Origin: Moniliella sp. 'wahieum'
Taxonomy: Eukaryota
Assembly: GCA_003971905.1 (NCBI GenBank)
Contig: RSEE01000035.1
Location: 310,001 to 374,000, forward strand
Length of the DNA stretch: 64,000 nucleotides
Direction: 5' to 3'
Positions 3,185-53,501 of this stretch are shown piece by piece. The position numbers and the translations under genes are program-made. The first letter of the stretch is position 1. Every line of letters begins with the position of its first letter. Under the pieces are notes generated by a model. It saw only the letters and a program-made list of their open reading frames with translations. It searched no databases and was not told where the DNA came from.

Positions 3185-5480
3185 ATCTCTATTCTGCATC
3201 CATACCATTGACAGAGCTTAAGGCTGGGACACAGGGGAGACGCTACGTCTAATCCGAACCGTTCATCTTGCGGGGGTTACTAGTGGAAGCGCCACCAAGG
3301 CTAAGGAACCAGGGGGATCGCCAGGATATCAGGACCCTCTGATTCTCGTCATCCGACCCCGTACCCTAGGTAGCGCGTGTGGACACGGATGAACGTAGTT
3401 GACATCCGAGCGAGGAACCATTTCCATTGAGACTCAGTAGCCAAATCCTCTTCCAATGCGCAAACATCTTGCCCGCTGTCTTATTGGTGCCGTAGTATCC
3501 TCGCGTCGTCAAAACCAGAGGGGAAAACGGCTCTTCATTGCGTCCCTGGTAGTACTTGGCGTTCTTGTCGCATTCTGCTTGTTCAAGCAGACGAAGCAGC
3601 TCCTTCTCCCGGCGTTCCAAGGGCGTCGCGGTGCTCTCGTACACCACTCTCCGGTACGCGTTGTGCGCCTCCTGCGTTCCCGTGTCGCGCAGCGTGTGGT
3701 CCACCTCCATTCCGGATCCTCTGATTGCTCCGGGCCCCATCACGCGGTAGTCGGTGCGCTGTGTCCTCTGTCTCCTCCCATCCTCTTCCTCCACCATAGG
3801 TTCGTTGCGGACGTGGGTGTCGGGGATGGAGCGTATGAGCTGGAGAATGGGCTCCCGCACTACCTCATACAACGCATTAAACTTGGCCTGGGAGCGGGCG
3901 CACACCATGTTGTGCTCCAGCGAGGACATGACGCCGCACTTGCATATGCTGCGCGTGGAGCGGCACAGCGTGCGGAGCTGTAGACCAACCTGAACCTGCT
4001 GGTCAGAGAGATTGAGGCACGGGACGAATGGAATGGCACAGAGGCAATTCTGGCTCAGCGGGTTGCTGTTCTCAACCCCATGGCGACCATCGGTAGGATC
4101 CAGCTGCTGGTGCAGCTCCTGTCGACTCCGCTCCCACATCGCCCGGCAGCGCTGGCATTGCTTCGTTAATGCGTTGGCCATATCCGTTTGTGGTCCCGAA
4201 CGGTCTGGTAATAAGAAAGCGGTTGACCTCGTTGGCCGCGGCACACAGGCATGGGGCGTAATATACGAGTAAAGCGGGCTGCGCCGCATCCTTTCATCCG
4301 GAGAGGCAGGCTCATGAGCATGTCGAAGTGGTCGTCCTTGGCACCTTGGGAGATCTCGTCGCCCCGGCATCCGTCTGAATTCCACATACAGATGAAGGCG
4401 TCGATCTCGGCCAGCATGTCGTCCAGCTCAACCCCATCTGCATAGTATGGAGAAGATGACGCAGCATGATCTGAGTACTGTACCGCCATAGTAAGAGGCG
4501 TCCCTGGGGGGTGATGCCCTCAAACTCGGGCATGTTCTCTCTCAGGACGGTTGGTCCCGGAGCCACGATCGACGACAGTCTAGCCCTCCCACACAAGTGC
4601 CCAGGGCGTGCAGCCCATCCTCCCAAATTTGGTCCCGGTCCCTTGCGCAGGTTGAGGGTGAGGCCTGACGCGTCGTCTTCCAAAATATCCGCGGCTAGGC
4701 CGGTAATACCTGGCTCTGGCCCGAAGAGAGGAATGTCTACCAGGAACGCAGCCATCACCAGGTGCACCAGCGGCAGATCCTTGTGCAACTTCTCCAGCGC
4801 GGGCCTCACTGCGATGGAGAAGAAAAGGGGGCGAGGGGGTCGCCCTGACAAACACCTTCTGCCGACAGAACCCGTGAATCATGTCCGCCCGAAGCAACCC
4901 AAAGATGGGTGGAGGAACCATAGATCCATCGAGCCAACGAGAGGGATGGCGGGCGAATACCATCGCCTGCTTCCGCGACCCGACGGTTGCGATAGCCGAA
5001 TGAATGGCGGGGATGGCGAAGTGGATGGCGGAGATGATCTGAGGGTGCGTGGGAGGGAGGAGCGCGGCGTTGGGGCGGGTGGGGAGGTAGGTGGGCGTGA
5101 GAAAGCCGCCCGGGATGCGGGGGTAGTGGGTGGACAGACACAGAAGCTGGACGGACGGCAGAGAGAGAGAGGGTCAGTGGAGGGCCGGGGGGTGGCAGAC
5201 GAGGCGCGGGAAGGCACAGGGGTAAGGGAGGCTGAGAATAGGGGGAAACGAGGCAACGGACCTTGGGGGCCGGGTAATGTCAGGCAGGTGGGAATGATCG
5301 TGGTAAGAAACCATAATGGGGGGGGGTTAGCGCGTTCCTGTGGCCAGGGGGTGTGAAAAGTCCTGCTGTTGCACAGACTGAGGTTGGGGGTAGAGGGTGT
5401 GTGGAAGGCTACGGCCCGGTGGTGGTCCTCCTTGTAAACGTGTGCCATCAATTGGTAATCTCTCCTCATCGACCTCATCC
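3185..5480 (-). mobile_element. Degenerate non-LTR retrotransposon, CRE/Cnl1-like (RT + restriction-like endonuclease)
   Basis: RT fragments WIYGSSTHL...EGVCQGDPLAP/FFSIAVRP...AAFLVDI (decayed YLDD-type motif) at about 4730-4930. C-terminal CKCG..H...C zinc knuckle followed by EP...RTD...KNAKY...FSPLVLTTRG (RLE-type) in ORF 3366-4385. The 3' UTR is shared with the copy at 54.0-55.1 kb. The 5' boundary is uncertain and may extend to about 6250. Confidence 0.8.
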
Positions 5481-6619: not shown

Positions 6620-6892
6620 TAGTGCTAGGGTGTCCCTACACGGCCCTCAAGTTGTTCCGTGATGCTCACCTCGCCGGGCGGAAAAGTTCCGCTCGCACGC
6701 CGCCCACCCCTCCCTGCTCGTTCCATCTGCATCTCCCTCTACTCTATCTCCTGTCTCCTGTCTCCTTCCCTTGGGACGTTGCTGGAAGACTTGTGCCTCA
6801 CCACTTTGCCTTCACGCCGTTTATCCGAAGGCTGCTTTGCAGCTGGTCGGTCGATGGGATCGTCGAGTTCTCCCGAGTCGCACTCCAGCAAA
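6620..6892 (+). repeat. Orphan copy of the 5' terminal region of the Crypton-like element at 36.9 kb
   Basis: Collinear similarity with 36946-37192: gtgctaggg..cggccctcaa..gacgttgc(t/tg)gaagacttgtg(c/g)ctcaccactttgccttcacgcc..gaaggctgctttgcagctg..ctcccgagtcgcactc. Confidence 0.85.
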
Positions 6893-6917
6893 TGCGCTAG
6901 ACATGCGACGCAACAAT

Positions 6918-8050
6918 GAGCTTCAGGCTTCAGGCTTCGCCGGCCTCATCGGCTCACCGGTCAGCAGTCAGCGCTCAGCGGTCCCAGCACCGGTCACCGG
7001 TCACCAGGGCCGCAGTTACATTACATTACAGTGGATAGATATGTGTTCTGAATGGACGGAGCAGTTGCTGCGGTGGGCTGCGGGCCGCGGGCCGCAACAG
7101 TAGCCCGCAGCCGCAGCAGTATCTATGTAGAACCTGCTTCTTCGGCGAGCGGCGAGCTGGGCTCTCGAGCGCGCGCCCTGGAAGGGGTCCAGTCTGTGTC
7201 CCCGGCCAGATACCTGAATCCGGAATCGATGATCTTCGCCAGACCCACCCTCCCTTGTGTGTAGAAAGGGTGTGCCAGTGGCCATTCCAAAGCTAAAACG
7301 CAGTCCCTAGTTAGTAATGCGATGTTAATCATTGGCCAACGCCTTACATTTAGGACGTTTAGGCGTGCAGGACGTTCAGATCGGTCAATTGAACGTCCAC
7401 ACTTACGCCTCAGGTACTCAATAGCAGCCCGCAGCAACACACTCTGTGAGCATCTGAATCAGGTACTCCGTGTACTCACTGTCAATGCCATGCACCATGC
7501 ACGTGCACATGCATATCACACGTCGCTTTAAGCTTTTAGGCTCACACTCAGTCTCTGAGCGCTCAATTGAAGCTTGAAGCTAGCTTGAAGCTTGACCGGT
7601 GACCGGTGACCGGTCTGAAGGCTTGAGGCCTTTTCCTGTGGGTTACTCGGTAGACGACCAGAGAACTCAGGCAGCCGATGGCGTATATTCCACTGCACAT
7701 ATGAGCTACAGAGGCTAGAGAATATTCCTGCCCTCCAGGATAAACTATTGGAAGGAATGCACCGGAAGGATCCGGGCTTGGGCTACTAGCACTTCTATAC
7801 TAGTGTGGCGCCTGTAAACCCAACTCGGTGAGAGTAGCAGTGTGAATATTCAACACTCGACAGTGCACTCTCAGTACATTCAGCAGCACTCAATATGTTG
7901 ACCAAAAGGGTCTGAGGTCTGAGGCCTGAGGGCCAGCAGCAGACCAGCCACCTCCGAGATCACTCTGATATTCAAGCTTCAAGCTGCACAGTATATACTC
8001 TTCTTCAGTAACTCAGTACTCATTCAGTCCTCAGTCTGAGTACTCAGTAA
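6918..8050. repeat. Non-coding tract dense in (TNA-NNNN)n 7-bp-period arrays
   Basis: 6954 TCA-CCGG-TCA-GCAG-TCA-GCGC-TCA-GCGG; 7586 TGA-AGCT-TGA-CCGG-TGA-CCGG-TGA-CCGG; 7913 TGA-GGTC-TGA-GGCC-TGA; about 8013 TCA-GTAC-TCA. Confidence 0.8.
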
Positions 8051-9144
8051 CGGAGTTGGCAGTACTATAGGCAGTACTCGGTATCCTAGTGACTAGTAAC
8101 TGGTGTTAGCTAAGCGACTGATGTTCGCTTCATAAGCTTCATAGCATGGCAACGCTTTTAAGACAGAGGGACAAAGAAACGCTGCGCCTATTGCTCTACC
8201 GTCATGTCATCGCGGTTAAACAGAGGCTCTCGCACAAGTACATAAGTGTGCTCTCGTTGAACATTATAAAAACGTAGACATTTGCATTGATCGATGCAGA
8301 TCGTGCTCATTTCGATCATCGGAGTGGGCACTTTCTGGCATGCGGGGACAGTGATCGTAGTGGGCGTTGGGCGCTGGGCGGTGTGTCTAAGTACGAAGCA
8401 TGCAACGGCTGAAAACGGCTGCGGGGTGCTGCGTAATGCTGTTGTTCATACGTTGTCAGGTGAATAGTGTGAATCATCAAGCATTGTGCTGCATGTGCTG
8501 CCTGTGCCAGCCACGTGCAGGGACATTGCCCCATCGTATGTTGCCTACCATTGCCCCCACCTCCTAGTCCCTTGTTATACACACGTTCCCACACCGGCGT
8601 TCTTCTCCGTCTTGTCATTGACTGTCCAGCTAAAGTGGGGTAGTGCGTAGGTCGTAGCAGCGGCGTGGGATACAGAAGGGCTGCGCACTAATAGTAGGCT
8701 TCCCTGGCCCTGCCAAGTAAGAGGGACGACCATCTCACGCAGCACTGGGCGTCGGTGCCCCGCTGTCTCACCCCGTGAATTGCTGCGCACCTCCCCCGCC
8801 GTCGCCCCGACGCGCCTAATGATCCTGGTTTCCAGCAAACGTCCTAAGTGCAGTTATACAATGGCAGAGAGAAGACAGGAGCTGGGTGAACCCAGACTGA
8901 GGATCAGAAGAAAAGAAGGAAGGAGAAGAAAGGAGGGCGGCGGCACTAGGCCAGGGGATAGGGAACTGGTGTGGTGCCCGGATGAAAGAAGGTCAGGAGT
9001 GCCGCGGAGGTGGCTGGCCCATAGGACCCTGGTCAACACCGCGTGTCAAGGAGCACTCACCACTCAGGCCGCATTCTTAAACGCCCCTCTTCTCGCCACC
9101 ACCTCCCCCCAACCCAACACCCCCCCCCCCGCCCTCCAGGACAC

Positions 9145-11569
9145 ATGCACAGCCTTTCCACCCTGGTCCGCCTGGCCTTTGTTGCTGCCGCCGGGGCCCC
9201 CTCGCTCGGCCCTCGCCCACCCGCCTACCGATCCTGGCCGGGCCTTTCATCCCCGCTTCACCTTCGCCGTGGCTCGCAAACGACGCAGCCGTGCCCCTCA
9301 TGCCCGCGCCAGCACGGTGGCGTGAGTACAACTTCGAGATCACACAGAGTGGCTCGCCCCCGACGGTTTCTGGCGCCAGACGTTGCCATCAACGGCCAAA
9401 CCCCCGGCCCAACCATTGAGGCCACCGAGGGAGACACTGTGCGCATCAATGTCGTCAACAATGTCAACACCCAGAGTAGTGTCCATTTCCACGGAATTGT
9501 TCAAGTTGATCCCCAACAAGACGGCGTGCCCGGGATCACTCAGTGGCCCATCTTCCTTACGGGAACTACACGTATGAGTGGAAAGCGGTCCAGTCAGGGG
9601 CTTACTTTTACCACTCGCACAGCCGCGGCACGTACGTTTCCCCCCTTGTCCCTCCACCCAGCTGTATGATTACTCACCTTTTTCCCTTCTTCGCGCCATC
9701 TCAGGTACGTCGACGGCTTGCGTGGACCAATCGTCATCCACCCGCTTCTACCGCTGGAAGGCCTGGAACTCGATAGACAAGTCAGCGTAAACAGCATCGA
9801 GCAAGCCTTCAAGCAAGCCGTGCCTCTTTTGCTCCACGATTGGCGGCACGAGACGTTTGACAATGCCCTGATCCGTTACCGCGGAACCGGACAGGACCCG
9901 TACTGCTCCGACTCGATGCTCATCAACTCACAAGGACGTGTAGTTTGCCTGCCATCGGAGCAGCTCCAAGAGTACTCTGGCGTTCCGGCAGCATTTGGTA
10001 TCGTGGATTATGTCGACCCAACTGGGTGTGTCCCACCGGTGCTGAGCTTTGAAAACCGTTTGGAGAACATTAATGCACGCACCTGCCAACACAACCAGTG
10101 CCTTTGGCGTCTACCCCACATCCTCCTTTGGCAGTAACGATGGCGACTGGGCCGCCTTCCACCTGGTCAATGCCGGTGCCGAGTGGCAGTCGTGTTTCTC
10201 CATTGACGGTCATGATATGTGGGTCGTGGCGCGCGACGGTACCTTTGTTGAGCCGCAAAAAGTGCAAGTGGTGCAGCTGACGCTTGGTTCACGCTACACT
10301 GTCGTTGTGCCCACGTCCAATTCTACTGGCCAGTACCGCATGCGTCTTGCTGCCTGCGGCAACCTACCTCAAATCTCGTCCGGATATGCTGTGCTTGATG
10401 TGGACAAGGCTGGCTCAGGTGCTGGTTCATCTTCTTCGGTGGTGAGCTCGAGCAAGGCCTCTTCTGTTGGTTCTTCCAAATCACGCTCCGTCGCCTCGTC
10501 CTCCGTTCCGACTGCAAGCAAGGCAAGCAAGCGGCAAGAGGCTACACCGGAGCCGGCCGACATTTCGACCGTTACCCAGTATTCTTCCTCCTTTGCCAGC
10601 GAATATACTCTTCCCGCTGAGATTATTGGTTTCCCCGTTCCGTCCGTGCAGCCGTACATCCCCACTCCGTCGCAACAGGCCGACCTTCCACTGCAGAAGG
10701 CCAAATGGAGCAACGGCTTCCCCCAGCCCGACACGCCTGCTGGCAAGGCCCTGGGATGGAACGTGACCAACGACTTGCCTTCCACTGGTACCACCTGGCT
10801 CAACTACAACGGAACGCTACTCAATGGTGCTTTGATTCAGAACGAATCCGCACTGGCCCCGTTCACTGCGGAAGCTCCCCCCAGGGCAGGCCGACTACAC
10901 GTTCCATTTGCAGTTGAACATGACGAATGGGGTCACATGGTCTTTGGTTGGAACCAACAAGACGTTCAGCTCGCTCAACTTTCAAGGTTACCCATTTTGT
11001 TTGATAAAGCGTCGGATCGGGGCCAGGGTATGCCTACTGACACCATCTTCAACATGAAGAACAACTCGGTGGTTGACTTTATCTTCCAGGACGCGACTAC
11101 GCGCCTGGGTCCCAACCCTCCCCACCCACTTCACAAGCATAACGATCCCGTGTGGTACTTGGGCTCGGGTGCTGGCACATTGAATTACACCTCTGTCGAA
11201 GACATTCTTTCCACAACAGCTCTCTGCTCAACATGCAAAACCCAGAATTACTCGATTCATGGAGCGTGCCTTCCCTTGGATGGGCTATTGTTCGCCACCA
11301 TGTTCGTCGCCCTACCGTTTCTTTGCTCCACTGCCACATTGCCCAGCATCTCAGTGTCCCCGTGTCTCCCATGCCGTGAAACCTGCTCGTACCTCTGGAC
11401 CGCTACTAACCACATCCGTATTTGCACTAGGCGCTGCTATGGCTATTGTCCTGGTTGAAGCTCCGGAGCTATGAACCTGTCCGACATCTCCTCGACCAAC
11501 CTTAATGCTCCTCACATCACTCCGCCCTACGTTGCGGCCAATGGCCTGGTGGGGTTGAGTGAGCTGTGA
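9145..11569 (+). CDS. Secreted multicopper oxidase (laccase-like)
   Basis: Signal-like N-terminus (MHSLSTLVRLAFVAAAG). All four Cu-binding motifs are present: SVHFHG..DGVPGITQWPI, GAYFYHSH, HPLHKH and HCHIAQHL..AAM. GT-AG introns at about 9632-9704 and 11354-11430. Several frameshifts. Confidence 0.92.
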
Positions 11570-16700: not shown

Positions 16701-19700
16701 AAATGTTTCCGTCCGAGAAAACGTATCTCCCTGCCCACCAGAAACGGCCTTTCCCTTAGCCAATAGCACGGGTTGCTGGATTTGGTCGGGCTCACGCGCC
16801 CGCTCAAACGATTCGCGGTGAATGTGATGGCCACGATCAGGAGTGTGCTGTCCGAGGACTACATTCTCCGTGGATTCGTCCTCGTCCTTGTCGGTCTCCG
16901 ACTGTTCCTCGCTCCCCTCTTCGTCTGAACTCTGCTCAGGTCCTTCATGAAGGCTTGGATCATCCTCTTCCCTGGAGAGTCGCTCGGACTTGGTCAGAGC
17001 TGTCCACATCCTCGGGAATGAGGCCCGCATGATTCGCGTTCGATGCCCCGATTTGTGCGTGAGGATCAGCTTCGTTCGCGTGCTGCACCACTTGGGCCTT
17101 TGCAACAGGCACAAGTGAGGCAAATGGATCCTCCCCTGGGGTTACTGTTGACATGGGGGACAAGTGAGTCGAAATTGGAAGGGAAGGCAGGATTTCGCGC
17201 GTTTTTCCATCAACAGAGGCAGGACGGCCGCCCCGGGTTTCCACTTCAGGTGAGACTTTGGTGCCGATGGAGGTTTGCTCAACCCCAGAGCGCAGAGGAG
17301 ACCCACCCGATCGTTTCTCTGTCTCTGATTCACTGTTCTTGCACCTCCTCCTCGTCGGTATCGTTACCTTCTCCATCAGCCTCCTCCTCTTCACTCTCGT
17401 CCTCTAGCTTGGGGTTGGATGCGGATGACGCATCGGACATCGTCTCCCTCGCAGCATAGCGCGCTTGAGGTACAGACGCTAGTTCCACAGCAGAGGCACC
17501 ACCCCTTCTAACAGTGGAGGAATGCGACACCGTCTGAGGCGTGGGGCCCACGGCGAGGAACCCTCGATTGGCCGAATTTTGAAGCGGGTGGGAACAGTCA
17601 ATTTGCCTGGATTGGAATCGGACTGTGACCCCGACGACGATTCTGATTCCGACTCCGACTCCGACTCCGATTCGGACTCCGATTCATCTGTTGAACCCTC
17701 GGGCGAAGCAAGATTGAGGAAAGGAGAGCGGCCGGTGTCGCTTGAGGACATTGGCCTGCGTACATTAGTCGTGATCGAAGGCGACGGCTGCTGCACACTC
17801 GTCGCCAACACACGGGATTCGATGGTCCCTTGCTGCCTCGACTCATCTGGAAAATGTTCATCCATGAGACGGCTCTCCGGTGCAGCCGTGGGTAGAGACC
17901 TGCCATCAGAGTCGGGGCGAATTTCGAACCGTCACCAGATACAATAGAAGAATGAGCGGGCAATCTTAAGACGGAAGAAGACGCGCTGTTTTTTCCCATT
18001 AGGTCCAAAGGCGTAGACTCTTGATTCAAGCACGGGTTCTGGTTTGGCCCCAAACCGCCTTGTACCATAGACACCTCAGAGGTATTGGATGACCCACTTG
18101 TTGATTCTGCAACGGCTGTGGTAACAATGTCAGAAAAGCAACAGTGGAAAAGGATAGACGTACTTTGCATCAACTCGGTCTCCGGCGCATCGTCCATCAT
18201 TTCTCCCATATACACTTGCCCGTGTTCAGGGCCCATCTTGCGCATCAAATCCCTAGTAGATTGCATGGCTTGAAGTGCTGCCGCCGCCTCATCCGCGGAC
18301 AAGCCCGGGGGAAGGAACAGCGCCAAGTCCATGTCGGAGTCGTCATCATCCATATTGGGCTCTAGGTCTTGGCCAAAGTTCACGGGGGGGTCCGAATTGA
18401 GATCAGAGCCATCCTCGCTGGCCGAAGCGGCATCATCCAATGGGACGTTACCGGGGGCGGGGATAGACACCAATGATCGGGTCGGGATATCCGCAGGAGC
18501 AAGGCCAGGCATCTCCCACTTTTCGTGTCCGTCATCGGTCAGTTCCTCCTCCTGCTCCTGAGTAGAGACGGCATCATGAATGTTCTCGCCCCGTTTGGCA
18601 GAGTCAGCTGACTCCGAGACGGCTTGGGATTCGGGGGGGCTAGCCCATCCCTCTGAAGTGGTAGATGAATGGGTACCAACACTCGCCCCGCCTTAGAACC
18701 ATCAGCTGGGACCGGTTGTGGAGGGATTACAAAGGTGCTGCTCCAGCGTGGGTGCAGAGGGTGTAGTGCTGCCTCTTCCACCACCTCAGAGGAATGATGT
18801 TCTTCACGTGCTGGTGCGGGACGTCGTGCATCTAACGACCGGGGTGCAGTGTGGGGATCCGGCCCGGGAGAGTGGTTGCGCGATGCAGCCTGCTCAGGCA
18901 CAAGCGGGTGAGGGGGAGAAGAAACGGTCGCAACAGCCCTGGGGGTTGCAGTGTGAGGGGAAAGAGACCCCCTGGAATCGTCGTGAGGTGGAATGCGTAG
19001 CGGAGGGGTAGCAAGATGGCGGGAAGAACGTTTTCATTCTCAGATTCATCCTCAGATTCATCCTCAGATTCATCTTCCGATTCATCTTCCGATTCATCCT
19101 CCGATTCACCCTCGGATTCATCCTCAGATGATGTGGACTCCGCGCTCTCGCTTACACTTACCTCACTTTCCTCCTCGCTGCCCTCCTCCGACTCTGATTC
19201 GGTCTCGGTCTCTGTGCTGGCCTCCGACTCGGATTCGGGGAAAAATGTAGTAGCTGTTGGAGTCTTGACCTCTGCCCTCGCGGCCTCGGCTCCTGCAGCC
19301 TCGGTTCCGGTGACTTCTGCTCTTGCGGCCTCGGCTGCAGTGGCCCCTTCTTCGGCGGCACTGGCTTCAGTGACCTCTTCTCCGGCGGCCTCGGCTGCAG
19401 TGACATCTGCTCTTCCGTCCTCTGGCCTCGGCATGTGGAGCCAAGCTTCAGCAGCGGCAACGCCAGCTAGACGAGGGGACCAAACACTGTCCATGTTCGG
19501 CAGGGAGGAGAGTGTACTCGTGGGGTGCTCGTGTCATCCGGTGCAACCGTATCCCGGTTTTCGTTTGGGTCAACAACGGAGCCCGAGTCTCCGCCCAAGA
19601 GAGGGGTGGCCCAACCTTCTGTGCCTCCATCGCTGCTCCACTCTGATGCTGGAGCAGAGGGAGGCGCAAGAAACTCCTTTTCTGTTCGAACCGAGCGGTG

Positions 19701-21876
19701 GCTGTAAGTATGAGATGGTTCAGGTGACGGTTCTGGTTCTAATGCTGCCACCTCAACGGTTGGTGGTGCATAGGCCGTACCCCTCCGCCCCAAAGTAGTG
19801 GGGAGGCCACCTGGAATGAAGCGCGACTCGAGCGTTGCGTCCGAGTGGGCAACAGAGGCTGTGTCGACCACGTCGATCTTAGCCGCTTGGGGGAGGAAAG
19901 CTCGGGCAAAAGAACCTGGGAACGGATTTGCAATGGTAGACGAGTCACTTTCATTTCCTTCATCGTCTTGAACCGAAAAGACGTGGGTAGGTGGGAGCAT
20001 GTCGTCCTCATCCTGAGTTAAAAATACGTGGGTGGGGGGGAGCATGTCATCCAGGGCAGCCGAAATGGGTGCAGATGGCAGATGGCTTGGCTGCTGAATG
20101 GGTGCGGTCCGGTGAGCAGGAATTTCTCGGTCCATTGAGTGAGGCGTTGCATTCGCTTCAGAGGGAATGGAAGGCATGTGCGTCGTCGAACCGTTTGATG
20201 AAGCGGAGCCTCTGGGCTGGGCGGAGGGGACTGAGGCAACATCTGGTGAGTCTGACTCCTCAGGAGACGAAGGTGGGGACATTAACGCAGAGAGAGAGAT
20301 TGGCTCCTTCGGTGATAAGTTGTGAGGAAAGCGGATGGTAGGGGAGGGAGGAAGCGGCACACCATGTTTGGGAGTTCGCGCCTCGCGATCCGAGGATGGC
20401 TCGGGAGAAGCCAGCTCTTCCTTCTCCTCGTATTCAGGGGGCGAACTGCGCTTACCCCTCCATGCAGAATCACCACCTGTTTGCTCCTTGCCCTTCTCGA
20501 TCTGGCGTCCTCGGTTCCGACCACGGCCCCTGGTGAGCTTGCGGACATCGCTAGGTAATTCATCATCCCAAACATTATCGGATGAGATGAAGGTGTGCGA
20601 GGGGCGATGAGACTGCAGCGGCCGGTTGGCGTTGGAAGTGGCCCACTCACTGGAGCGTTCTTCTTCTTTTTCCGCAGGTGGGTAACGTGGGACTTCGCCA
20701 GAACGGCGGGGCGGACGAGAAAGGTCTCCCGAGGATCGGTGACGCAAACGCGCCCCCAGGTCGGTTGATGTACGCAAGGACTGTGGTCGCAAGTCCATTG
20801 AAGGACGAACAGCGCGCAAGCCCAGGTCGGAAGAAAGGCGGGGTAGGCGCGCCTTGGGGTCGGCCAAGGGTTGGGCCGAGCGCATTGGCCACGAGCCGTA
20901 GTCAGCAGAAGGACGGACTGTTCGGCTTCCCAGATCGGTCGAGGGTCGAACAGACCGAGTGCCCAGATCAGCCGAGGGACGAACTGTGCGCCGACCTACA
21001 TCCGAGGAGAGACGCGGTGGACGCAAGTACGGACCAGGCGAGTCGCGGGGAGCGGTGGCCCATATCGGCCGAAGGCCGCACAGATCGATACCCCAAATCA
21101 GCGGAGGGCCGAACTGAACGGGGACCCATATCAGCGGATGGGCGAACAGAGCGGGAGCCCATATCAGCCGAAGGCCGTACTGACCGGCGCCCCAAATCGG
21201 CAGATGGGCGAACAGAGCGGGAGCCCATATCAGCCGAAGGCCGTACTGACCGGCGACCCAAGTCAGCGGAAGGCCGAACTGAGCGGATGCCCCGGTCAGT
21301 GGGGTGGGCACTCCAATCTGGTATCGTGATCAAGTCAGCGATGGCCCTGTATACACCCTTGAAAAGGAAACATCGTACCTAATTCGTGTGCTAGCCCTGG
21401 TGAGCGGGGAACTTCGACCGACTTGCGTGGAGCAGGGAAACGCGAGGTCGGAGCGGAAGGGTGGGGGGCGGGGCCGGGAGAGCGCGGATGAGCGGCATAA
21501 TCCAGGGTGAGGCGGGCTGACGCGGGCTCGGTGGAGGGTGCGGGTGCGGGTGCAACTGAGGAAGGGGAGGGATCTCTGGGCTGGTAGTAGGACGGAGGCG
21601 GCGGGAAAGACGGTTGAGCAAGCCGGAGCGGGGCGACGTGGTGGGCAGGGGCGGTGGCGGCGAGAGGTGTGGTGCGGTTTGGGACGCGGGCGGCGTGAGG
21701 GGGGGCAGGGCGCGCGGGGGCGAGGATGGATGGATGCGGCTGGGGCCAGGTGGCTCGTAGGCGGGGTGGGCGGGCGCATAGGAGCTGTCGAGGATGGCCC
21801 GGCGAGACGGCCTCGGCGGCTGCGGTTGCGCGGCGGGCGGCGGCTGCGCGGACGGGTGGAAGGGCGGGAAGAGCAT
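13760..21876 (-). CDS. Very large disordered protein with C-terminal Ras-association-like + PH domain tandem
   Basis: About 8 kb of continuous Ser/Pro/acidic coding frames on the minus strand. RA-like VSVKVFI...GWCLFDV...ERPLRESE.VGEVL...YLYLRR at about 14250-14620. PH-like RRGKWSKRWLEL..NTLMHSK...FNFAVRR...VYFSTDDP..QRDWILTILLA at about 13900-14220. Ends are approximate, and the region could be more than one gene. Confidence 0.65.
19038..19130 (-). repeat. 12-bp coding tandem repeat encoding (EDES)n
   Basis: tcagattcatcc/ccgattcatctt units on the + strand give SEDESEDESEDE on the minus strand. Confidence 0.85.
20740..21295 (-). repeat. 33-bp (11-aa) coding tandem repeat RSVRPSAD[L/M]Gx
   Basis: Seven near-perfect units at about 21060-21290 (RSVRPSADLGR/RSVRPSADMGS...), plus several degenerate units further along the gene (RTVRPSADLGT, RAVRPSMDL, SLRTSTDLG). 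Confidence 0.9.
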
Positions 21877-24215
21877 CGTCCTAGACGGGGTGGCGGTGGT
21901 GGGGCCGGTGGGGGCCAGTGGGAGCCAGTGGGGGCCGTCGGGGCAGCGGGGCAGCGGGGCGGGTGGGGCGGGGCGGGCGGGGCAGGCGGCGGAAAAGCGA
22001 GGCGCAAAAGTTCAAGTTGAGCAGGCGCCGTCACGTGCGCGGCGCGCCCCGGCGCATCGATCGACCATTCCGCCTGGATGCGGGGCAGCGCGCAGGAAAA
22101 GGCGGGGCAGCAGCCGTGCTGGCCAGCAGCCGCGCCTCCCGCACGGCGCCAGCCTTGCGCCGTCCATCCCCGCTCTGTGCTTCCTGCGGCAGCCCTAGCA
22201 GGCCGCAGGCTGAGGGTTACACGTTACGCCTTACGCGTTACGGCTGCCCGCCGTCTAACCATGACGCTGACGTCTGACGCCCTGGAAGAAGCCCTTGTCA
22301 ATCTGGCCGTGTGGCCAGACAATCAGACGTGTTTGTTTAGCTGCTATATAAAAAGCTGTCCGTGGATTGAGCAACCGGGCGGTCCGCGGGGTGTCAGAGT
22401 CGGGAGATCGTCCCGTGGTGGACGCGGACTGCGTGAGACTGGCACTCAGTATTCAGTTGCTCACCTGCTGTGAAGACGAGGTGTATACAACAGGGTGTAT
22501 AACATGTGTACAAACCCAAGTTTTTCTCGTTTCTCGCGGCTTCGCTCGGCTGTGCATCTCCTGCCTTTGCGGCATGGCTGCAGCCGTGATGAACGCTCCT
22601 GGTGTCACGTTTTGTCACGGCTGGGACGTAAGAGAGATCTGGTATCATACGATGGGCGCAATGTGCGGACGACCATCAACGTCTCAAATGTCGAGGCGCT
22701 GAGGCGCTCACAAGCGCGCAGCGCTCACAGGATACTCAGTACTCAGGAGACGAGGCCTCTCTTTCTCTTCAAGTGGCAGTAGTGACTAGTGACTAGAATG
22801 ACTACTGACTTCTCCGTAATGTGATTGTCAGGCATTTTCTCCTTTATATCCATGCCCCTCTCCACCCCGAACGTCCAACATCAACACGATCATCTCGTAT
22901 TTTGACTGCCACAGCACCCCGCCGCGTTTCCTGTCAGCTGTATCAGCAATAGTCACCGACGTCGTGCGATATTGTCAAGAAAAATGTCTGGCAAACACAC
23001 TGCTAAGCCACGCCTCTCGATCTCATGCCTAACATACGCCCACAATCATCAATTGCTCGGGGACTGCTGTCTGCTGCTGTCCGCACATCTCTGTTATGTT
23101 GGTCTTTGTTTTTTACTCTGTTACAACCTCAGGTTGTGCGTGTTACATGTTACAGCTTTCGAGATGCACTAAACACAACCGTCGACGGCTATATATTTTG
23201 TGCTATTTGTGCTATATGTGAAGTGCATGTGAAGTCTGAAGCTTCCAGCTTGGAGTGTTATATCTTTTGAGACGCGTGCTGGCCTAGGGATAGCAAGCCG
23301 TTGGAGTGTCTCCGTTCAACGTTCACGCGTCACGACATGACCGCGATGACCCTCGTAAAGCGTCCGTGTTATGCAGTGCTCTACCCTGCTTTGCCCCCCA
23401 CACTGCGTTGCCAGGCCTTAGTGAATGTGTGTGGATCTCTGCTCAAATTCCTAATTAGTAGAGCACAGCCTCTGTATATATGAGTGCCAGCTGGATGAGC
23501 CTCGTAGGACTTGGGTCATTGGCTCGTATATGCCCGGCCAGCGCATATGAAAGGGGCAAGAGGAGCGGGGCCGCGCAATCGCCAATTTCCACGAGCGGTT
23601 TGGAGGGAAAGACAAGGTAGGGTCAGGTAGGGCGCATTCTGGTGCGAATTGCAACAGGGTCTGTGGTGGGTATGTTGTCGCCGTGACAGAGGGGAAGCTG
23701 TTGCAAATACACCGTGCAACTTGCGCGCGCACACCGGCCCCCTGCCCGCCGTCCCAAATTGATGGGCGGGGACAAAGCGAGACGGATTGCAAATTCACCC
23801 AAGCACTGGCCGAGGCCTCTGGCTACACTTCCCCGCCACCCTGCCCCCGACGCTCGGCAGCGGCCGGCACGTACCACCGCCAATCCAGGCCCAGGCCAGG
23901 CCGCACCCTCGCCCCCGCCAGCGCCACCGCCTGACCCCATCGACTCATCGCTCGTCCCGTGTCTATTTTCCATCACGGCTCCGCGTCGTGTCATGCGAGA
24001 CTCACAGGCCCACAATAAAGATATCCAGACCGGCCCGGTCAGCGGCAGGCTACAGCAGGTACTAACACAGACACAGACACCCGAGCCGCTGGATTGGGCA
24101 GTGCGCAGCCTCCTTTTCATACAGTCGACGCCCATTTAAGCCTTCGCCACACACGCACAACCTCCCCTCGTGCACTCCCTCCCCCCCTCCCCCCTTCTTC
24201 GCGTCCACACCCTAC

Positions 24216-25840: not shown

Positions 25841-27879
25841 TGACCTTGGGGTTGCTTCTCTCTCCTTTTTGTCCCAGTCCCTCGACTCGTGTATGCACCG
25901 CTGTCGATACCAAGCTGCCGTCCACGCACTTTGCTCGTGTGATTATCCATTGTCCCTCTCCGTATATATTCATCAATCATCATCTCAGTTGTTGCCTTCT
26001 TACATCTCTCGTAAAAACTCATGCACCCTGTCATCTTTTCCCATCTCTTCTGCCTGTCTGGCTCCGTTGCTTGGTCCCCACAAGTAGCGACGCCATGATT
26101 TGAGACGCGTATATGCGAGTTTATGCTTTTTACCGTTAATATAGGGGTCGCGTTTCTTTGGCTCAGTGTAGTTTTGTAAATGAGATGTGAATGCAATGAA
26201 ACAGTATACGATAGGCAATAAGCTCCAGGAGTGTCTTTTTACTACTAGAATTGGTACGACGATCTGTGGTGCATCATCAGCACATCATGCACGTCATGAT
26301 GATCTATAAAGGACTGCTACATGTTACAGACCTGCATTGCTAGGGGCACAAGCTCGACAATGACCATCTGCCGTTCGTCTCGTGGCTCGAACGTGATGGC
26401 CGTGCCGTAAAAAGCATCGCCACACCTATCAGTTTTGCCGGTATTGCATATCCTACAGCAGGTCCTACAGAGCCCACAACACCCTGGCTCAATATATGCT
26501 CAAAACGCCACAACAGCCGGCGGGGATACCGAGGGTCGATCGCAGCAAAAGACGTAATCAAATCGAGATAATAATAGAAGGGATCAGAGCGGTGCCAGTA
26601 CTCGTTACAGGTTTCCGATCGTTTTACCACCATGTGCGTGCATATACCTGTGCTTGCGGGCCCTCACTCGATAGTACCCTGACGGTTTGACGCCGCCCGT
26701 CCCTTGTGACTGGGTAACAAAACATAATATATGCTTCTGTTCGTGTAACATGCGTGCGCGTTACTAGTTACTCTGCTACAGGTGGTGGCGCGCGTGATGC
26801 ATTACGCATGCGTGACTCGCACGGGGCCTCTATTGTAGCCGCAAGCATTGTGCGTTGCGAGAATCGATGATCAATATTCAATCTCAGCTTCCCCACCCCA
26901 CCCACCAGCTCAACAGGCACAACAAGAGCTCTGGGGAGCTGTGCATGATGGCGATACAGAGGAGACCGGTGAGCGGTGAGCGCTGAGCTTAGGATGGAGG
27001 GGACGTGGTGTCGCATGTCGACCGTCGCAAGGCGACAGGAGAGAGACACGAACACGCGACACAAAAGCGCAGGCGTGATGACGATGACATGTGACGTGAG
27101 TGTGACATCAAGCACCACAAAAGACAGTGGCTGTTACGCGTTGCGGCGCGTTTCGCTTAGTACATCCTTAACTCCGGACTTACAGAGCCCCGCATTTCGT
27201 ACACTTCTCAGACCTCAGAATCTTAGATCTTATCGATCTCATCATCGACATCATCGACATGCATCTCTCATTGAAAACGTGCCACCGTCCCGTCAGCACC
27301 ACGCCAAGACGTCCCGCGGCAACACACCCGCAAAAGCACGATGAAGGTCCACAGGGGCTCAACGAGACAAAGGGATTATTAGTCATTGTCCCTATAGGGA
27401 AACCAGCATCTACTAGACTCCTGGGCCTGGCATGCCGACGGTTCACCTGAATTCTTCTATCTGAGCGGGGCTGCGTCCCAACCGTTCCAACTGCCAACAT
27501 AGCGGTGGTGGTCCTGGGAATACACCAGGGCCCCTTCTCGTCCATCCGCACCGTGCTTGTTTTCTTTTTTTTTCTCTTTTTTTTCTTCCCGCCTGGCACT
27601 TCACATTGAACAGCGCAAATCGATCGCTCCGCACCCACACAGTGCCAGACCAAGGGGCAAAACGCCCGCCAGGACCAGCAGGTCCTGCCATGCACGATGA
27701 CGCCGCGTGCGCGATTGAAGTTGGCGCTCTTTGCGAGCGAGGAGGATGGCGGTATCGTCGTCGACTCCATGCAAGCCTGGTTGGCCATGCGGGGCAAGCG
27801 GGTAAAACGCACGCACGGCTCTCGTTTCTGACCCCAGCTCCGACGGCCCACCTGCCTCGTCTCGCACAGGCAACTGGAC

Positions 27880-36945: not shown

Positions 36946-39900
36946 TGTGCTAGGGTTCCCTTGTACGGCCCTCAATGGATCGGTGACGCTCGCCTAGCCG
37001 AGCGAAGCGTTCCGCCGCAGACCCCGCACGCCCTGCTCGCTCCATCTCCCTTCTCTCTCTCCTTTCCCCTTCCCTTCAGACGTTGCTTGAAGACTTGTGG
37101 CTCACCACTTTGCCTTCACGCCTTGTCTGAAGGCTGCTTTGCAGCTGATCCATAGGATTGCGAGTGCTCCCGAGTCGCACTCTAGCAATTTGTACCAGGC
37201 GTTGCTTTCCCCTAGCCTGAGACACCGAAGGGGGTACACTGCCCCCATGCCAAAGCGCCCAGCATCCGCTTTCCCGCCCACGCTGACCTAAGCGGGTGGG
37301 CGCTCGCCTTGCAACGTTTCAACAAGCGTGGAAATTGGCCCCGCCGTAACGCGTAACACGGTTCCTCCGCGCCTCGGCCAAGTCCACTCCTCCTGCTCGC
37401 CCAAGCAAGGCCCAACGACGAAAACAACCAACAGCCACCATCCCACCATGGTCCCTCCCCCTTCCCCGCGCCCACGCCCATCCGCCCGCAGGCGCTCCCA
37501 TCGCCCCACTCCCCTGCGCAATGATGGCCGCGCCGCTGCCAACCGCGCGCCCCGTCGCGGGCGCCGTACTCCGGCCTTGCGCCGCACCCCCGCTGCTGTT
37601 GCCGCTCGCGCCGCGAGGCTAGTAGCGGCACCCCTCTTGTTGGGATAGAGAGGGCCGTGGATGCAGACGGCGCTGACATTGTCGTCCCCGAAGAAGACGA
37701 CGAAGACGACTATGGCTTCTCCGATGATGACGATGATGACATGACTCTCGGCCGCGACGCAGGGCTGGAGAACCTGGACGATCCGGTCCAACTGCAAGAG
37801 GAACTGTGTGAGACTCTCAAAATTTACGGCGTCGAGTTATCGATTTCCAACTCGGATTTCCAAGCGCTTAAAGACAGCGTGGGCAAAGAGGACTTAACTG
37901 ATGCTGACGCTGTCATTTATATGCCTGGACCCGAAGGATCAGACAGACAAAGTACCGGTGCTGTCCACGCTTGGGGCCCCCGAACCGGCTGGTGAAGTGG
38001 AGGACTATGAACCAGGCGTAGATTTTCAAGGGTTCCTCTTGGAACATGCCCGCAATGGAGGCGACCTGGGAACCACATTACGTGGAGTAACATCCAAAAA
38101 ACCCATCGCGCCGTCGACCTTGCGCAAATATCAGTCTGCGATACGACGGTTTGTCCATTTTCTCGCCCTCCCATGCATGCGAACTTTTCGCGACTGCCTC
38201 GAGAAGAAAACCAACCGCACGGCGTTTGCAGTCAATCTTTGGTTTTTCAAAACGTTAATGTTCGAGCGTGTCAAATTTGACACGCTGTCTGGGCGGCACG
38301 CCGCCTTGCTGTGGTGGTTCGACATGACCTATCCCGACTGTAGCTCCCCCCACTTCTTTGACTGGAAAACTTTCGTGGGCAATCCAGTGCGCAACAACGA
38401 GCTGGTCGCAATGATGCGCACAGCTCACAACCGCCATCGACGTGATCCACGTGTGTCGCATTCTTCCAACGCGATCCGGTATTGGGACTTGGTAGAAATC
38501 ATTGATGTCCTGGAGGATCAGTTGAAGCGGGCAATGCCTGACCCTTCCTTCATCGCCAGGGCCGGAGGGGCTCCAGTATTTAACCCGTCCGAAACCAAGC
38601 CCCTTATGCTGCTGACGGCGTGCATCCTCGCGTACCGTATGTGGCTTCGCTCACGTGAGGTATTGGACCTGAAGTGGAGAGACATTAAAAATCATCACGA
38701 GGCGGTCGCAGGAGACGCGCTTTCGGTTACGTGAGTGGACCTTCTTCGTTACTGTTCCCACTCTGACATGTCTTTTCTTTCGAAGGGTCACGTTTCACAG
38801 GACCAATCAGCACAACCCAGAAAACAGACAGAGATATCTTCTCTTCGATCTGGTTGGGCGACCGAGGGCCAGTGCTGTGCAGATCATGAGGCGCTGGAGG
38901 GAGCACTGCCAGCTGTTTGGGTACCAGTTGGAGGATGACGAGTATGTGTTTCCTCAGCTTGCGAGAAATGCGTCCTTCCCTAGGCATCGCCGCACGGACG
39001 ATGCGCCCTTTCCTCGAGCGACGGCGGCTTTCACCTACAAGACGTTCAGTGGATGGCTCAAGCAAACCATGCGTTGCAATCCCCACTTCAGAAACATTAC
39101 TGGTCATTATACTATTCATGGGTTTCGGCGTGGTGGTGCGCAAGATGCTTTTAACTTTGCCGAGGAATATGGCGAGCGGCCTAAGACCCTCCAACAGGTT
39201 CGCTGGTGGGGTGGGTGGTCACGGCTCAACAATTTGCCCTGGTTCGTTATGTTTTGGACCAAAGGGGGGCTATCGAGCACAGGTGCGATCACATGGAAGT
39301 TGAAGTTTCTGTGGGTCGGCATGCCATCTCAGAGACTGGCCTTCCCCTCAGCGATGTCGAACGCATTGTGCTTAACGTCGAAGAGCGCATGGGACGGCGG
39401 CTGGATGCGATTCCGGAGAGGACTGCAACACTTGTGAACCCGGAGCTCAAATTATTAACGGAAAGGATAGCGGGCCTCGAGCAAAGGCTCCAGGAAGCGA
39501 TGGAATGGACTGGGCATCAGACGGCGAGCATCTTCCAGGCGATAGTGGGCCTCGAGCAAAGGATTGGGCATCAGATGCTGCAGAACCCTTCGATGGGTAT
39601 TCGGCATCTGGTCGAAAATCCCAATCCTGGCGCGCCTGGAGGCCTGCGCCAAACGCCTGGCCCTTGGCCGTCAACAATACGCCTCCACCCCTGTATACTC
39701 TGCAGGCGCCTCGCCCTCCATCCATGCATGAGGTCTCTGCATTCCCGACGGCTCTTGATCATGCTAGGGTTCCACCCATTGCATTTCCCACTAATGGTGC
39801 TCCATCGCCTGCACCTGCTCCTGCTCCTGCACCTGCTCCTGCACCTGCTCCTGCACCTGCACCTGCTCCTGCTCCTGCTCCTGCTCTTACTCCATCGCCT

Positions 39901-40900
39901 GCTCCTGCTCCTGCTCCTGCTCTTGCTCCATCGCCTGCTCCTGGTCGTTCACACCCCCTGCTCCTACTGTCCCGCCCTTGGAACCTACTGCTCCACCGCC
40001 TGTTCCTGCAGGTCCTGCCACGACTGATTTTCTTGCACCTCCGACCGAACCACCACCAGTTGCTGCTGCCCCTGCCACGACTGCCGCGACTGATTTCCTT
40101 GCTCCTCCCACTAGACCTCCACCTGCTCCTGTTCCTCCTGCCTATGCCGCTCCTCCTTACGCCATCCCTTCCCGGTCTGTTCGCACCAGGGTTGGCCCCA
40201 CCCGTCCCACCCGTCCCACATCCCTCATTCAGGCCCCCCCTATTCCGCGGGGGTCAGCCTTGATGATCCCTCCACATTTGTTGATAAGCCTTTTGAGCTC
40301 AACCGGAGGTTGTTGTTGAGCAAGAAGACGGTTAGGAAGTCAAAGGACGGCAAGGAAAAGGCTCGGGAGAATGTCGTCGAGAAGACTTCCCCTTTCCCAG
40401 CGGACTACGTTCACCCCCTCGAGATGAGCATGGTGGTCAAAGACCCCTATCGTTGGATGTGGTGGAGCCTTACAGCTGAGGACAATCTCTACGATTTGCT
40501 CAAGATACCAAAGAGAATGTTCCTGGTTTACTGGAGGGAATGTGGGAGTGATCTTGCCAGGTTCCAAGAAAAATACGGATCGGAGTATCTGTATGGCGGA
40601 GGGGAAAAAGCAATGGAAGGAGATTTCGGTCAACTTTTTGGACGCAGAAGTGCGCAGGCAAGAAAACCTAAAGAAGCAGCAGGAGCCTTTCACCAAGAGC
40701 GACAAGATTCGTTATGGTGTCCCAAGCCAAACGGGAGAGAGCCCTGATTGATTGATGCTCTCAGATCTGCATCTCGCCGCTCGCAGCCGACGGGAACGCT
40801 TGGCGCTGATGTTTCGCCTGTAAATGGTATCCAGTGACGTCTTCTTGAAGCCATTCGATAGTTGGTCTCTGAAATGCAATCGCGGCCACCACTGTATACC
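36946..40900 (+). mobile_element. Crypton-type tyrosine recombinase transposon
   Basis: Encodes a YR recombinase and no RT. Its 5' terminal ~250 bp is repeated at 6620-6892. It lies between two housekeeping genes. The 3' boundary is not defined. Confidence 0.75.
37247..40837 (+). CDS. Crypton tyrosine recombinase with Pro/Ala linker and probable C-terminal DNA-binding (GCR1_C-like) region
   Basis: STLRKYQSAIRRF core-binding helix; catalytic R in MWLRSREVLDLKWRDI (about 38648); YVFPQLA; HGFRRGGAQ (about 39117); VRWWGGWS; nucleophile Y in LVRYVLD (about 39248). Intron at about 38731-38786. (PA)n tract at 39808-39945. The C-terminal domain call is tentative. Confidence 0.82.
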
Positions 40901-41621
40901 CGCTGATCGAGGATCTCCTCCCTTTCATTTAATCCGATTTTTGGTACTGCGTGATTATTGGGCAGCTAACTGTGGGAATGGAGGTGGTGAGTCGTAACAT
41001 TCACTGCATTGCTCCCCCAAGCGATGCTTCCTATTCGCAGGAAGGGCGGAGCAGAAGAAATGTAAGAGCACTACTGATGCCCTGCTGCCACTGGTCGCAT
41101 GTCACATGTCACATGTCACATGTCACATGTCACCGGTCACCAGTGTCGCAACAGAGCGTACGTTTCAGAATTGAATAGGAGCACACCCCGTCTATCAGTA
41201 CTCAGTGCTTTGCGCACCAGAAGGTGCACTAGGCTCAGGTGCTGCCTGCTACCCAGCCAGCCCAGCCCCAGCTCAGCCCCAAACCCCAGCCTCAGCCCCC
41301 CAGAGGAGGCTACCCCGAAGCCACTTTAGAAACAGGCTGCGGGCTGCTGCTACCTGCTGCCGTACTGCCCCCGTGCCAGCCACAGCTTGTCATCATATCA
41401 TTCAACGTACATTCAACCTTGGGCCACGCGCCTTCAAGCTTCAAGCTTAGAGCGCTTTGCGCTTAATCCGCTGAACGTTGAACTTTGCCCCCCCAGCGCG
41501 CGCTTCGAAATGTAAGTGGGCGTGTGCCCCCCTGTATTGGCTCCCTCGGCCCACACACCATCCCTTTCCGTCCTCCACGCCGCCGTCCACCCTCACCTCA
41601 CCTTCTCATATCTTGCCTTCC

Positions 41622-43272: not shown

Positions 43273-44350
43273 GACGACATTGATCCTTGTCATTGCTTTG
43301 CGTTGCGTTCGTCCTCTCCTTCTCTTCCCCACACGTATGCCACTGCCATTTACGACCCCCCTTTTTGGCACTCCATTCCATTTCCCTCGGCCGTATTGGG
43401 GCCTTTAAGGCGCAGCATTGGAATTGGCCTTTGGTGGGACTGCCCGTATGGACAATATCTTCTCTGTGCTCCTTGTGAGGATGGCGGTTTGTTTTGTTGT
43501 AGGGCCTTGATTTCCGAATCCAAGGAGGGGAGGATGGGGTGCTCTCTCATGTTATCCATCCCACTCTTTGCTTTGGTTTGCTCGACCGTATGGCCTGTTT
43601 TCCGTTTCCCTATTTCATGGCAATTGCACTAGAACCATCATGAACATTTGGCGATTCAACATGGGCCCCGGAGGTGCTTTTAGCGGGAAGGCCACGGGGG
43701 CGTTGGTTGAATAGCACCCTTCGGGGCCGGCCGCAGCGCTGGAAAGAAAGGAAGCCCACCAGGTGCGGCTCAGCCTGAACCTGGATTAACCTTTGCCTCT
43801 TCGGTTCCCAAGCCGAACCGGTTACCGATTTAACCTTTAACGTTTAACGTTTAACCCAAAGTGATCTTTCAAACGATCATTTACGTAGGGTTACGCCTTG
43901 CGACAAACAGGGGCACCCTATCCAAGTGGAGGCTCACACACTGCCCTTCCGCCAAACTCGCCACACTGCCCCCACGGCCGGGATCAAAATTTGCCATCGT
44001 TCGCGGTGGCCTATAAAGAAGGTCGCGGGCGCCCTCTCCAAGCTTCTTTCCCTTACCCTTATGCGGCACTTGATGCCGCGCCGGTGCGCCTCCTTCCCCG
44101 TCCGGCTCGCCTCTTTCGTGGCGGAGACCGCCCTTGGCCCCGGCAGAAGAAAGCCCAGGGGGCTGCTAAAACCATCGTCCGGAGGTTCGCTTTTGCTGAG
44201 CCCATGAGTGTCGATGACCTATTGTCCCTACACCTTCCTCATCTTTAAAATGGACATGTCTTTCCTTCTTCTCGTCCCTAACTGGCCTACTTCATAGCTC
44301 AGATGTTGTCTCGATATTTGTTTAGAACATTGGCGGCTCATCGAGCACAT

Positions 44351-46437: not shown

Positions 46438-46525
46438 GCTCTGATCTTCCAGTGGTTAGGAAGTAGGATTTTGAGACTACAACACAAACTTTCCTGAAAC
46501 CTGGGTTCGAATCCCAGTCGGAGCT
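46438..46525 (+). tRNA. tRNA-Gln(TTG) with 16-nt canonical-position intron
   Basis: Acceptor stem GCTCTGA/TCGGAGC; D-arm TTCC-AGTGGTTA-GGAA; anticodon stem TAGGA/TCCTG with TTG at 46471-46473; intron at about 46475-46490; T-arm CTGGG-TTCGAAT-CCCAG; followed directly by an oligo-T Pol III terminator. Confidence 0.93.
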
Positions 46526-53269: not shown

Positions 53270-53501
53270 CCCACTTTGGTCGAACAGAAGGGTAGCTGCA
53301 GGGCCTCACTAGTCATTGACCTCCCTTGCCGTCTCCTGGTACGTTCTGGACTATACATCAGGACAGGCAATGCCACACAGACGCCCCGCCGCCTCGAGTG
53401 CAGGTCGATGCAAGAGACAAACAGCCATGTTTCCGCCTGTGCACAGGTGAAGCGAGGCAGGGCGCCTGTCCCTTTGCATACGGGTCTCACGAGAAAGGCA
53501 T
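53270..53501 (+). repeat. ~230-bp dispersed direct repeat, copy 1
   Basis: cccactttggtcgaacagaaggg..ctgcagggcctcactagtcattgac..ccttgccgtctcctggtacgttctggacta..agaaaggcat is repeated at 55395-55625. Confidence 0.9.

Follow-up and report, generated by a model that had tools for sequence, protein, structure and literature searches.

Heptamer arrays built on a T-N-A core in intergenic DNA of Moniliella sp. 'wahieum': possible scars of transposon excision

How does a tandem array arise in which one trinucleotide recurs every 7 bp while the four nucleotides between its copies change and still, for the most part, remain palindromic? We considered this question for a tract at positions 6918-8050 of a 64,000-nucleotide stretch from the genome of Moniliella sp. 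'wahieum' (GenBank assembly GCA_003971905.1, contig RSEE01000035.1, positions 310,001 to 374,000 of the forward strand). This whole 64-kb stretch, 56-64% GC compared to 57% for the genome, is called the window below. An earlier, sequence-only reading of the tract quoted three such chains, at 6954, 7586 and 7913, and all three are present as written. It explained each unit as a 3-bp TNA target duplication, of the kind made by PIF/Harbinger elements, enclosing two bases from each end of a terminal inverted repeat (TIR), so that a chain would record which element families had visited the site. Here we find that the arrays are best read as stacks of repeated events, as that reading supposed, but that the spacer is copied from the neighbouring bases, so that a chain is no log of visiting families.

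We defined the motif as a T-N-A triplet followed by a 4-nt palindrome and an identical T-N-A, and took dinucleotide-preserving shuffles of the window as background. The motif occurs at 50 positions in 39 loci, against 2.1 (standard deviation 1.5) in the shuffles, and this held on repetition. The frame TNA-N4-TNA is itself over-represented (100 against 36 expected), and the spacer is palindromic in 50 of these cases, where 1.9 would be expected. For all other trinucleotides pooled, the same frame yields 80 cases against 61. Changing the spacer length abolishes the signal: palindromic spacers of 2, 6 and 8 nt between TNA triplets are not enriched in the window (10 versus 8.7, 2 versus 0.5 and 1 versus 0.2, respectively). 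Enrichment is confined, in other words, to a spacer length of 4 and to T-N-A triplets. The signal is real, far above chance and no artefact of the statistic, and the palindromic character of the spacers noted in the sequence-only reading is borne out.

The same unit emerges from a count of exact tandem duplications. Those of period 7 and at least 14 bp number 31 in the window, compared to 3.9 (standard deviation 1.9) in 30 shuffles; for period 8 the figures are 7 and 1.1, and period 7 is also unusually frequent among the 119 rows returned by Tandem Repeats Finder. Seventeen of the 31 period-7 units are odd palindromes of the form X1X2X3-N-X3'X2'X1', a form that a random heptamer shows in some rotation with a chance of 0.11 (p = 3e-9), and 16 of these 17 are centred on T-N-A, the remaining one on G-N-C. 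One simple explanation might be that hairpin-prone palindromic heptamers expand by replication slippage, like ordinary micro- or minisatellites. Arrays do reach five exact copies, period-7 runs mostly measure whole multiples of 7, plus 0-1, and variant units differ by point changes. However, slippage would not be expected to settle on T-N-A in 16 of 17 palindromic units, and on G-N-C in one, in a genome with 57% GC; it cannot make the partial units described below, which are the commonest form; and changes of spacer within an array, from AGCT to CCGG or from CATG to CTAG, stay palindromic. Nor is there such a signal in other fungi (see below). The unit is too precise and too specific for TNA, and we consider slippage highly improbable as the origin of the arrays, in line with the sequence-only reading. 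Slippage may nonetheless have enlarged arrays that already existed.

Two properties of the triplet are informative. First, in cases of the form T.A-palindrome-T.A the middle base is identical on both sides in 50 of 61 and complementary (C/G) in seven. As N is copied rather than complemented, the triplet is a direct duplication and not part of a longer palindrome, which upholds the earlier view of it as a directly duplicated target. Second, use of the four triplets follows their availability: events number 26 on 933 sites for TCA, 15 on 914 for TGA, 6 on 324 for TTA and 3 on 311 for TAA, or, pooled, 41 on 1847 sites for TCA and TGA and 9 on 635 for TTA and TAA.

Where does the motif occur? In the 15.4 kb free of open reading frames (ORFs) it is found 34 times where 0.73 would be expected; under ORFs of at least 150 amino acids it is found 16 times against 1.6. 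At least one of the latter, that at 43172, arises by chance within the hexokinase reading frame. For comparison with other fungi we used 71 fungal metagenome contigs carrying hexokinase; the 69 that measure 1500 bp or more, roughly 476 kb in total, hold 37 motifs where 32.9 are expected, that is, no excess. The enrichment is therefore specific to the present genome among the fungi sampled. A close relative was not found among the 71 metagenome hexokinase loci, where identity is mostly at or below 66% and peaks at 79% over one short partial match.

Within the window the motif is widespread, and the idea that the 1.1-kb tract is a hotspot does not survive: 10 motifs lie in 1753 bp around it (6898-8650), 8 in only 851 bp at 40745-41595 and 5 in 1155 bp at 22471-23625. 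Overall, the motif takes up roughly 590 bp of the window, with some 2 sites for each kb of ORF-free DNA. What sets the tract apart is that it belongs to the longest ORF-free stretch in the window, upstream of a multicopper oxidase gene. This position, together with the intergenic location of the motif in general, would suit selected cis-regulatory sites, with tandem half-sites for a dimeric factor lying in promoters. But a factor that tolerates any N would not need the same N twice, and neither the 13 different cores nor a spacer set by neighbouring bases, not by a consensus, are what such sites would predict. We regard a regulatory origin as extremely improbable.

What, then, determines the spacer? 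The sequence-only reading drew it from element ends, two nucleotides from each TIR, and this proposal fails. Of the 16 possible palindromic tetramers as many as 13 serve as spacers, and no DNA transposon was found in the 64 kb, so there are too many spacer types for element termini. More importantly, the spacer follows its flank. Of 33 loci with a single hit, 25 show a period-7 match that runs at least 2 nt past the triplets on one side (20 loci) or both (5 loci), where 4 would be expected (p = 6e-17); the other 8 show no such extension. Each palindrome, then, consists half of original flanking sequence and half of the reverse complement of that sequence. The commonest form is a partial unit of exactly 5+2+5: among all 5+2+5 repeats, TNAxy-y'x'-TNAxy occurs 29 times against 0.25 expected and its mirror, xyTNA-y'x'-xyTNA, 23 times against 0.12, the 12-mers of both forms together coming to 51 against 0.34. 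The corresponding constructions with palindromic bases taken from the TNA side occur 0 and 0 times. Array ends tell the same story: beyond a last TNA and xy the sequence is unrelated (as at 41130, 43837, 52525 and 6994). The spacer is templated from flanking bases and has the structure of palindromic (P) nucleotides at an opened hairpin. We also considered whether the 12-mers might be decayed 14-mers and rejected this, as mismatches on the side without a match look random (by hand count, 8 are single and 6 double). Ordinary tandem repeats confound generic scans in which repeat length is set against the number of P nucleotides.

The 5+2+5 construction is also seen with triplets other than TNA, in counts of 12 and 8 against 3.9 and 3.5 expected, in part as rotated TNA arrays. 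Such sites (7075-7095, 7488-7502, 8361-8380, 12261, 22198 and 22713) include GCGGG-CC-GCGGG, CCATG-CA-CCATG and TGGGC-GC-TGGGC. The T-N-A rule may thus be a strong preference and perhaps not absolute.

Templating by the flank changes what an array can tell us. The switch from AGCT to CCGG in TGA-AGCT-TGA-CCGG-TGA is explained by a single TGA with left flank CT and right flank CC, and conveys nothing about element families. The model of a 3-bp, PIF/Harbinger-like TNA duplication enclosing two bases per TIR end does account for a TNA that is directly duplicated, with copies exactly 4 nt apart, and NuwaII elements of the PIF/Harbinger-ISL2EU-Spy group, present in basidiomycetes, share with our motif a duplicated T-N-A core with free N (PMC4482050, in part). 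According to the same source, however, NuwaII takes C-TNA-G targets and has TIRs that start with GG, so that a GGCC spacer would be expected. Here GGCC is found at 2 of 39 loci, and the bases beside the triplet are not C and G: at 30 oriented sites the preceding base is G in 14, T in 7, C in 5 and A in 4, and the following base C in 10, G in 9, A in 9 and T in 2. Neither did the window yield any TNA-flanked TIR element. There is a residue in the model's favour: 8 of the 33 single loci (a set in which about 2 chance loci are expected) lack a flank match, 7 of them independent, and 3 of these 7 carry CATG, as would result from CA..TG termini. A minority of footprints might therefore stem from element ends as first proposed, but as a general explanation, in the face of the spacer variety, the flank match and the 12-mers, we judge the model very unlikely.

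How could a flank write its own reverse complement next to a duplicated triplet? An inverted copy of two flank bases without any loop suggests a covalent hairpin with its tip just past them; the flank would then end in TNAxy, and the duplication would span 2 nt beyond the triplet. We therefore propose, tentatively, that a lineage-specific break-and-repair process centred on TNA has left the units as neutral scars, most likely excision footprints of a cut-and-paste transposon with a 7-bp nnTnAnn duplication; this is a plausible reading, although we would stop short of calling it probable. Imagine that an element inserts and duplicates l2l1-TNA-r1r2. Its excision would leave both flanks as hairpins with the tip exactly on the element border, that is, even-centred. 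A host nuclease would then open each hairpin 2 nt off the tip, unzipping the outer 2 bp, which would produce 4-nt self-complementary 3' overhangs (r1r2r2'r1' and l1'l2'l2l1) on a duplex ending at TNA. Were one overhang retained and the other trimmed, the outcome would be TNA-xyy'x'-TNA-xy, a net gain of 7 bp. Where the target itself forms a palindrome, which is the case inside an array, the identical overhangs would anneal and exactly one unit would be added. Every scar would regenerate TNA targets, allowing arrays to grow, and a single TNA with unlike left and right flanks might seed two adjacent palindromes, such as AGCT beside CCGG.

Hairpins left by RAG and Transib are even-centred; those of Ac and Hermes are offset by 1 nt. 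With this in mind, a second possibility is a 5-bp duplication of TNAxy by a Transib- or hAT5-like element, with two P nucleotides on one flank only. The commonest form is indeed exactly 5+2+5, and the chemistry of Transib and RAG would supply the even centre. Several observations argue against it. Palindromic nucleotides never come from the TNA side (0 and 0, compared to 29 and 23), a restriction that a symmetric transposase would not impose, and a 5-bp target with TNA on one edge is asymmetric, which the model leaves without explanation. A symmetric 7-bp stagger, on the other hand, fits with palindromic bases drawn equally often from either side but never from TNA, and with the fact that N does not predict the side. 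Both flanks, moreover, are duplicated at 7+2+7 loci. A P-type 2-nt spacer is present in 3 of 4 TNA-centred 7+2+7 repeats but in only 7 of 69 with other centres (Fisher p = 0.007, from three loci only). The three are CCTCATC-GA-CCTCATC at 5464-5479; CTTCATA-AG-CTTCATA at 8128-8143, where the heptamer is TCA-centred and the spacer is the reverse complement of its first 2 nt; and CATCATC-GA-CATCATC-GA-CATG at 27240-27265, where the form is repeated. On balance, we consider the 5-bp model decidedly unlikely.

A form with two extra nucleotides, TNA-palindrome+2 nt-TNA, occurs 10 times in ORF-free DNA against 1.2 expected, a minor product class, and a single joint of period 11 carries two palindromes, at 7571. 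Four further models were considered and not retained. A 3-bp duplication with the hairpin on its border predicts TNA-TN'A hexamers (31 versus 35.6; rejected); hAT-type odd palindromes, that is, 3-nt spacers, are at background (12 versus 9.6; rejected); a long palindrome that has lost its centre predicts spacers of 6-10 nt, which are not enriched (rejected); and loss of both overhangs, giving TNATNA, shows a weak excess (53 versus 37 in the window, 17 versus 11.7 in ORF-free DNA).

A number of results weigh against excision footprints as we have described them. Pfam scans of 39 ORFs in the window reveal no transposase, DDE types included, and no Myb-like gene, and no TNA-flanked pair of TIRs was found in the window with 10-nt seeds and spans of 40-6000 bp, such pairs as there are being at chance level. 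One outcome dominates here, whereas hairpin footprints studied in fungi are heterogeneous: for Ac/Ds in Candida, 28 footprint types were recorded in 128 excisions (PMC5873905, in part). An even palindrome with N not complemented does not fit canonical hAT chemistry. Non-palindromic exact heptamer duplications centred on TNA number 3 of 14, where we would roughly estimate 3.8 (taking the probability of a T.A rotation as about 0.27), and are thus not enriched. Moreover, the preference for a 7-bp over a 5-bp stagger draws on three loci, the extra 2 nt of the TNA-palindrome+2-TNA form equal the outer flank in only 6 of 20 cases (hand count), and seven independent loci, three of them with CATG, lack a flank match.

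Another possibility is that there is no mobile element at all. A host or domesticated nuclease directed to TNA would cut open intergenic chromatin in staggered fashion, leaving ends capped by hairpins, and end joining would write the 7-bp unit. This would agree with 64 kb free of elements, with very uniform outcomes and with a motif specific to the lineage. Against it, no candidate gene was identified, and direct duplication is what strand transfer by an element produces; the tests made do not separate a nuclease from a rare or extinct element. We consider such a nuclease acting alone unlikely, and continue to prefer excision footprints of a transposon with a 7-bp duplication.

How does this proposal compare to known systems? 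Excision footprints with palindromic nucleotides are textbook knowledge. Transposases of the hAT, Transib and MULE types leave hairpins on the flanks, and their repair yields palindromic insertions (PMC5499845, PMC5873905, both in part). Like those footprints and the V(D)J coding joints that carry P nucleotides, with repair by end joining according to the same accounts, our units combine a retained target duplication with short flank-templated palindromic nucleotides. Unlike them, they have an even-centred palindrome, exactly 2 templated nt, one dominant outcome, a tendency to stack and what would be a 7-bp stagger around TNA. In hAT elements the palindrome has at its centre the complement of the base that adjoins the element, and the footprints are heterogeneous (PMC5873905); the duplication is of 8 bp. 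Our palindromes are even and of period 7. DNA transposons with 7-bp duplications do exist in Basidiomycota, namely hAT7 in Pucciniales and Kyakuja in Agaricomycotina (PMC12730594, in part). They would share stagger and phylum with the present case, but that source places them in Pucciniomycotina and Agaricomycotina, and hAT chemistry is unfit for an even palindrome. Tc1/mariner footprints also consist of a filler of fixed length between two copies of the target, the filler being 4 nt in our case. Theirs is fixed by the element, as in the Sleeping Beauty footprint TA-CWG-TA, and ours varies with the flank. A full-text literature search, outside which most subscription journals fall, brought up no account of a genome-wide scar of a single 7-bp type forming stacked heptamer arrays, and none of a 7-bp target centred on TNA.

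The individual arrays illustrate these features. The tract opens with GCTTCAG x2.7 (6920-6938), a 7-bp duplication centred on TCA; its spacer, GGCT, would need one more complementary pair to be a palindrome. The chain TCA-CCGG-TCA-GCAG-TCA-GCGC-TCA-GCGG at 6954-6981, in which adjacent spacers are 1-2 substitutions apart, is followed at 6988-7005 by CA-CCGG-TCA-CCGG-TCA-CC, which ends with TCA and CC before unrelated sequence; its end, TCA-CCGG-TCA-CC-AG, recurs at 41130. At 7567-7595 lies a TGA-AGCT array with an AGCT-AGCT junction (two palindromes between two TGA, hence period 11), joined through a common TGA to TGACCGG x3.1 at 7593-7614. There follow the chain GGTC-TGA-GGTC-TGA-GGCC-TGA-GGGCC (7909-7935), two complete units in T-TCA-AGCT-TCA-AGCT (7971-7985) and a degenerate array of TCA-GTAC units that includes indels and a single TGA unit (8005-8049).

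Elsewhere in the window we find TGA-TGCA-TGA-TGCA-T (2868-2882), the chain TTA-CACG-TTA-CGCC-TTA-CGCG-TTA-CG (22216-22242), a TGA-CTAG array carrying a 2-nt indel (22780-22810), TTA-ACCT-TTA-ACGT-TTA-ACGT-TTA-AC (43829-43856) and TCA-CGTG-TCA-CATG-TCA-CTAG-TCA-CTAG-TCA-CT (52505-52543). The longest array, at 41098-41140, comprises CATG-TCA x5 and then TCA-CCGG-TCA-CC, so that the palindrome changes at its end. The arrays at 6988-7014 and 41124-41150 have a common end and flank, TCA-CCGG-TCA-CC-AG-(G/T)G-(C/T)CGCA (85% identity), so that either one segment has been duplicated or the same target context has recurred.

The window also holds three pairs of dispersed repeats; comparing their copies reveals no TNA-type 7-bp indel, and their borders no TNA duplication. 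Copies of about 270 bp (79% identical) at 6622-6891, ending just upstream of the tract, and at 36947-37188 differ in that the first has TCTCCTG x2.9 and a 15-bp insertion that the second lacks; a module like a short interspersed nuclear element, an untranslated region or a promoter module are candidates for what they represent. An inverted repeat of about 450 bp (82-85% identical) links 3185-3638 to 53773-55101 on the reverse strand, 50 kb away. The latter copy is split by an insertion of about 867 bp (around 54165-55031), with GACCC on both sides, no TIRs and an inner ORF of 246 amino acids without a Pfam match. Finally, two directly repeated copies of about 235 bp, 2125 bp apart at 53269-53501 and 55394-55624, are 91% identical and have sharp borders but no TIR or duplication. 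Both contain TCA-CTAG-TCA, so this scar is older than the copying.

Regarding gene content, ORFs broken by short gaps encode hexokinase, a Sec7/GBF1-type exchange factor, a multicopper oxidase (Pfam finds a Cu-oxidase_3 domain in the ORF at 9025-9669), a bromodomain protein and an AAA ATPase. The nearest named proteins to the hexokinase ORF come from Ceraceosorus, Tilletiaria and Tilletia and share about 60-63% identity with it; two further assemblies reach 80-82%. This places the organism among the basidiomycetes, in the Ustilaginomycotina, and the search gave no named species close to it. A transfer RNA of 88 nt, probably with an intron, is recognised at 46438-46525 (Rfam, 50.6 bits), although ARAGORN in bacterial mode reports none. 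Large ORFs hold longer in-frame tandem repeats that are unrelated to the heptamer motif (21050-21286, 39808-39943 and 19033-19129), comprising 33/66-bp units x7, CCTGCT x22 and a 12-bp unit x8.

What would these arrays mean for the organism? A bolder version of our proposal is that this Ustilaginomycotina lineage harbours, now or until recently, an undescribed and very active cut-and-paste system, be it a transposon or a domesticated nuclease, with cuts 7 bp apart around T-N-A, even-centred hairpins like those of RAG and Transib, and self-propagating scars. Those scars would be where most intergenic tandem repeats come from, and would form a major indel class. We regard this as possible but doubtful. 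If the proposal is correct, a single enzymatic process has marked intergenic DNA in a recognisable way, and from these marks past transposon visits could be counted, and stagger, target and hairpin chemistry deduced, after the last copy of the element had been lost. Arrays would then give a readable count of visits per site, but not the identity of the family. Heptamer minisatellites would have a concrete origin, in which each scar renews its own target, and the finding would point to a type of DNA transposon so far undescribed in Ustilaginomycotina. In promoters, as here upstream of the multicopper oxidase gene, such scars may supply regulatory variation steadily.

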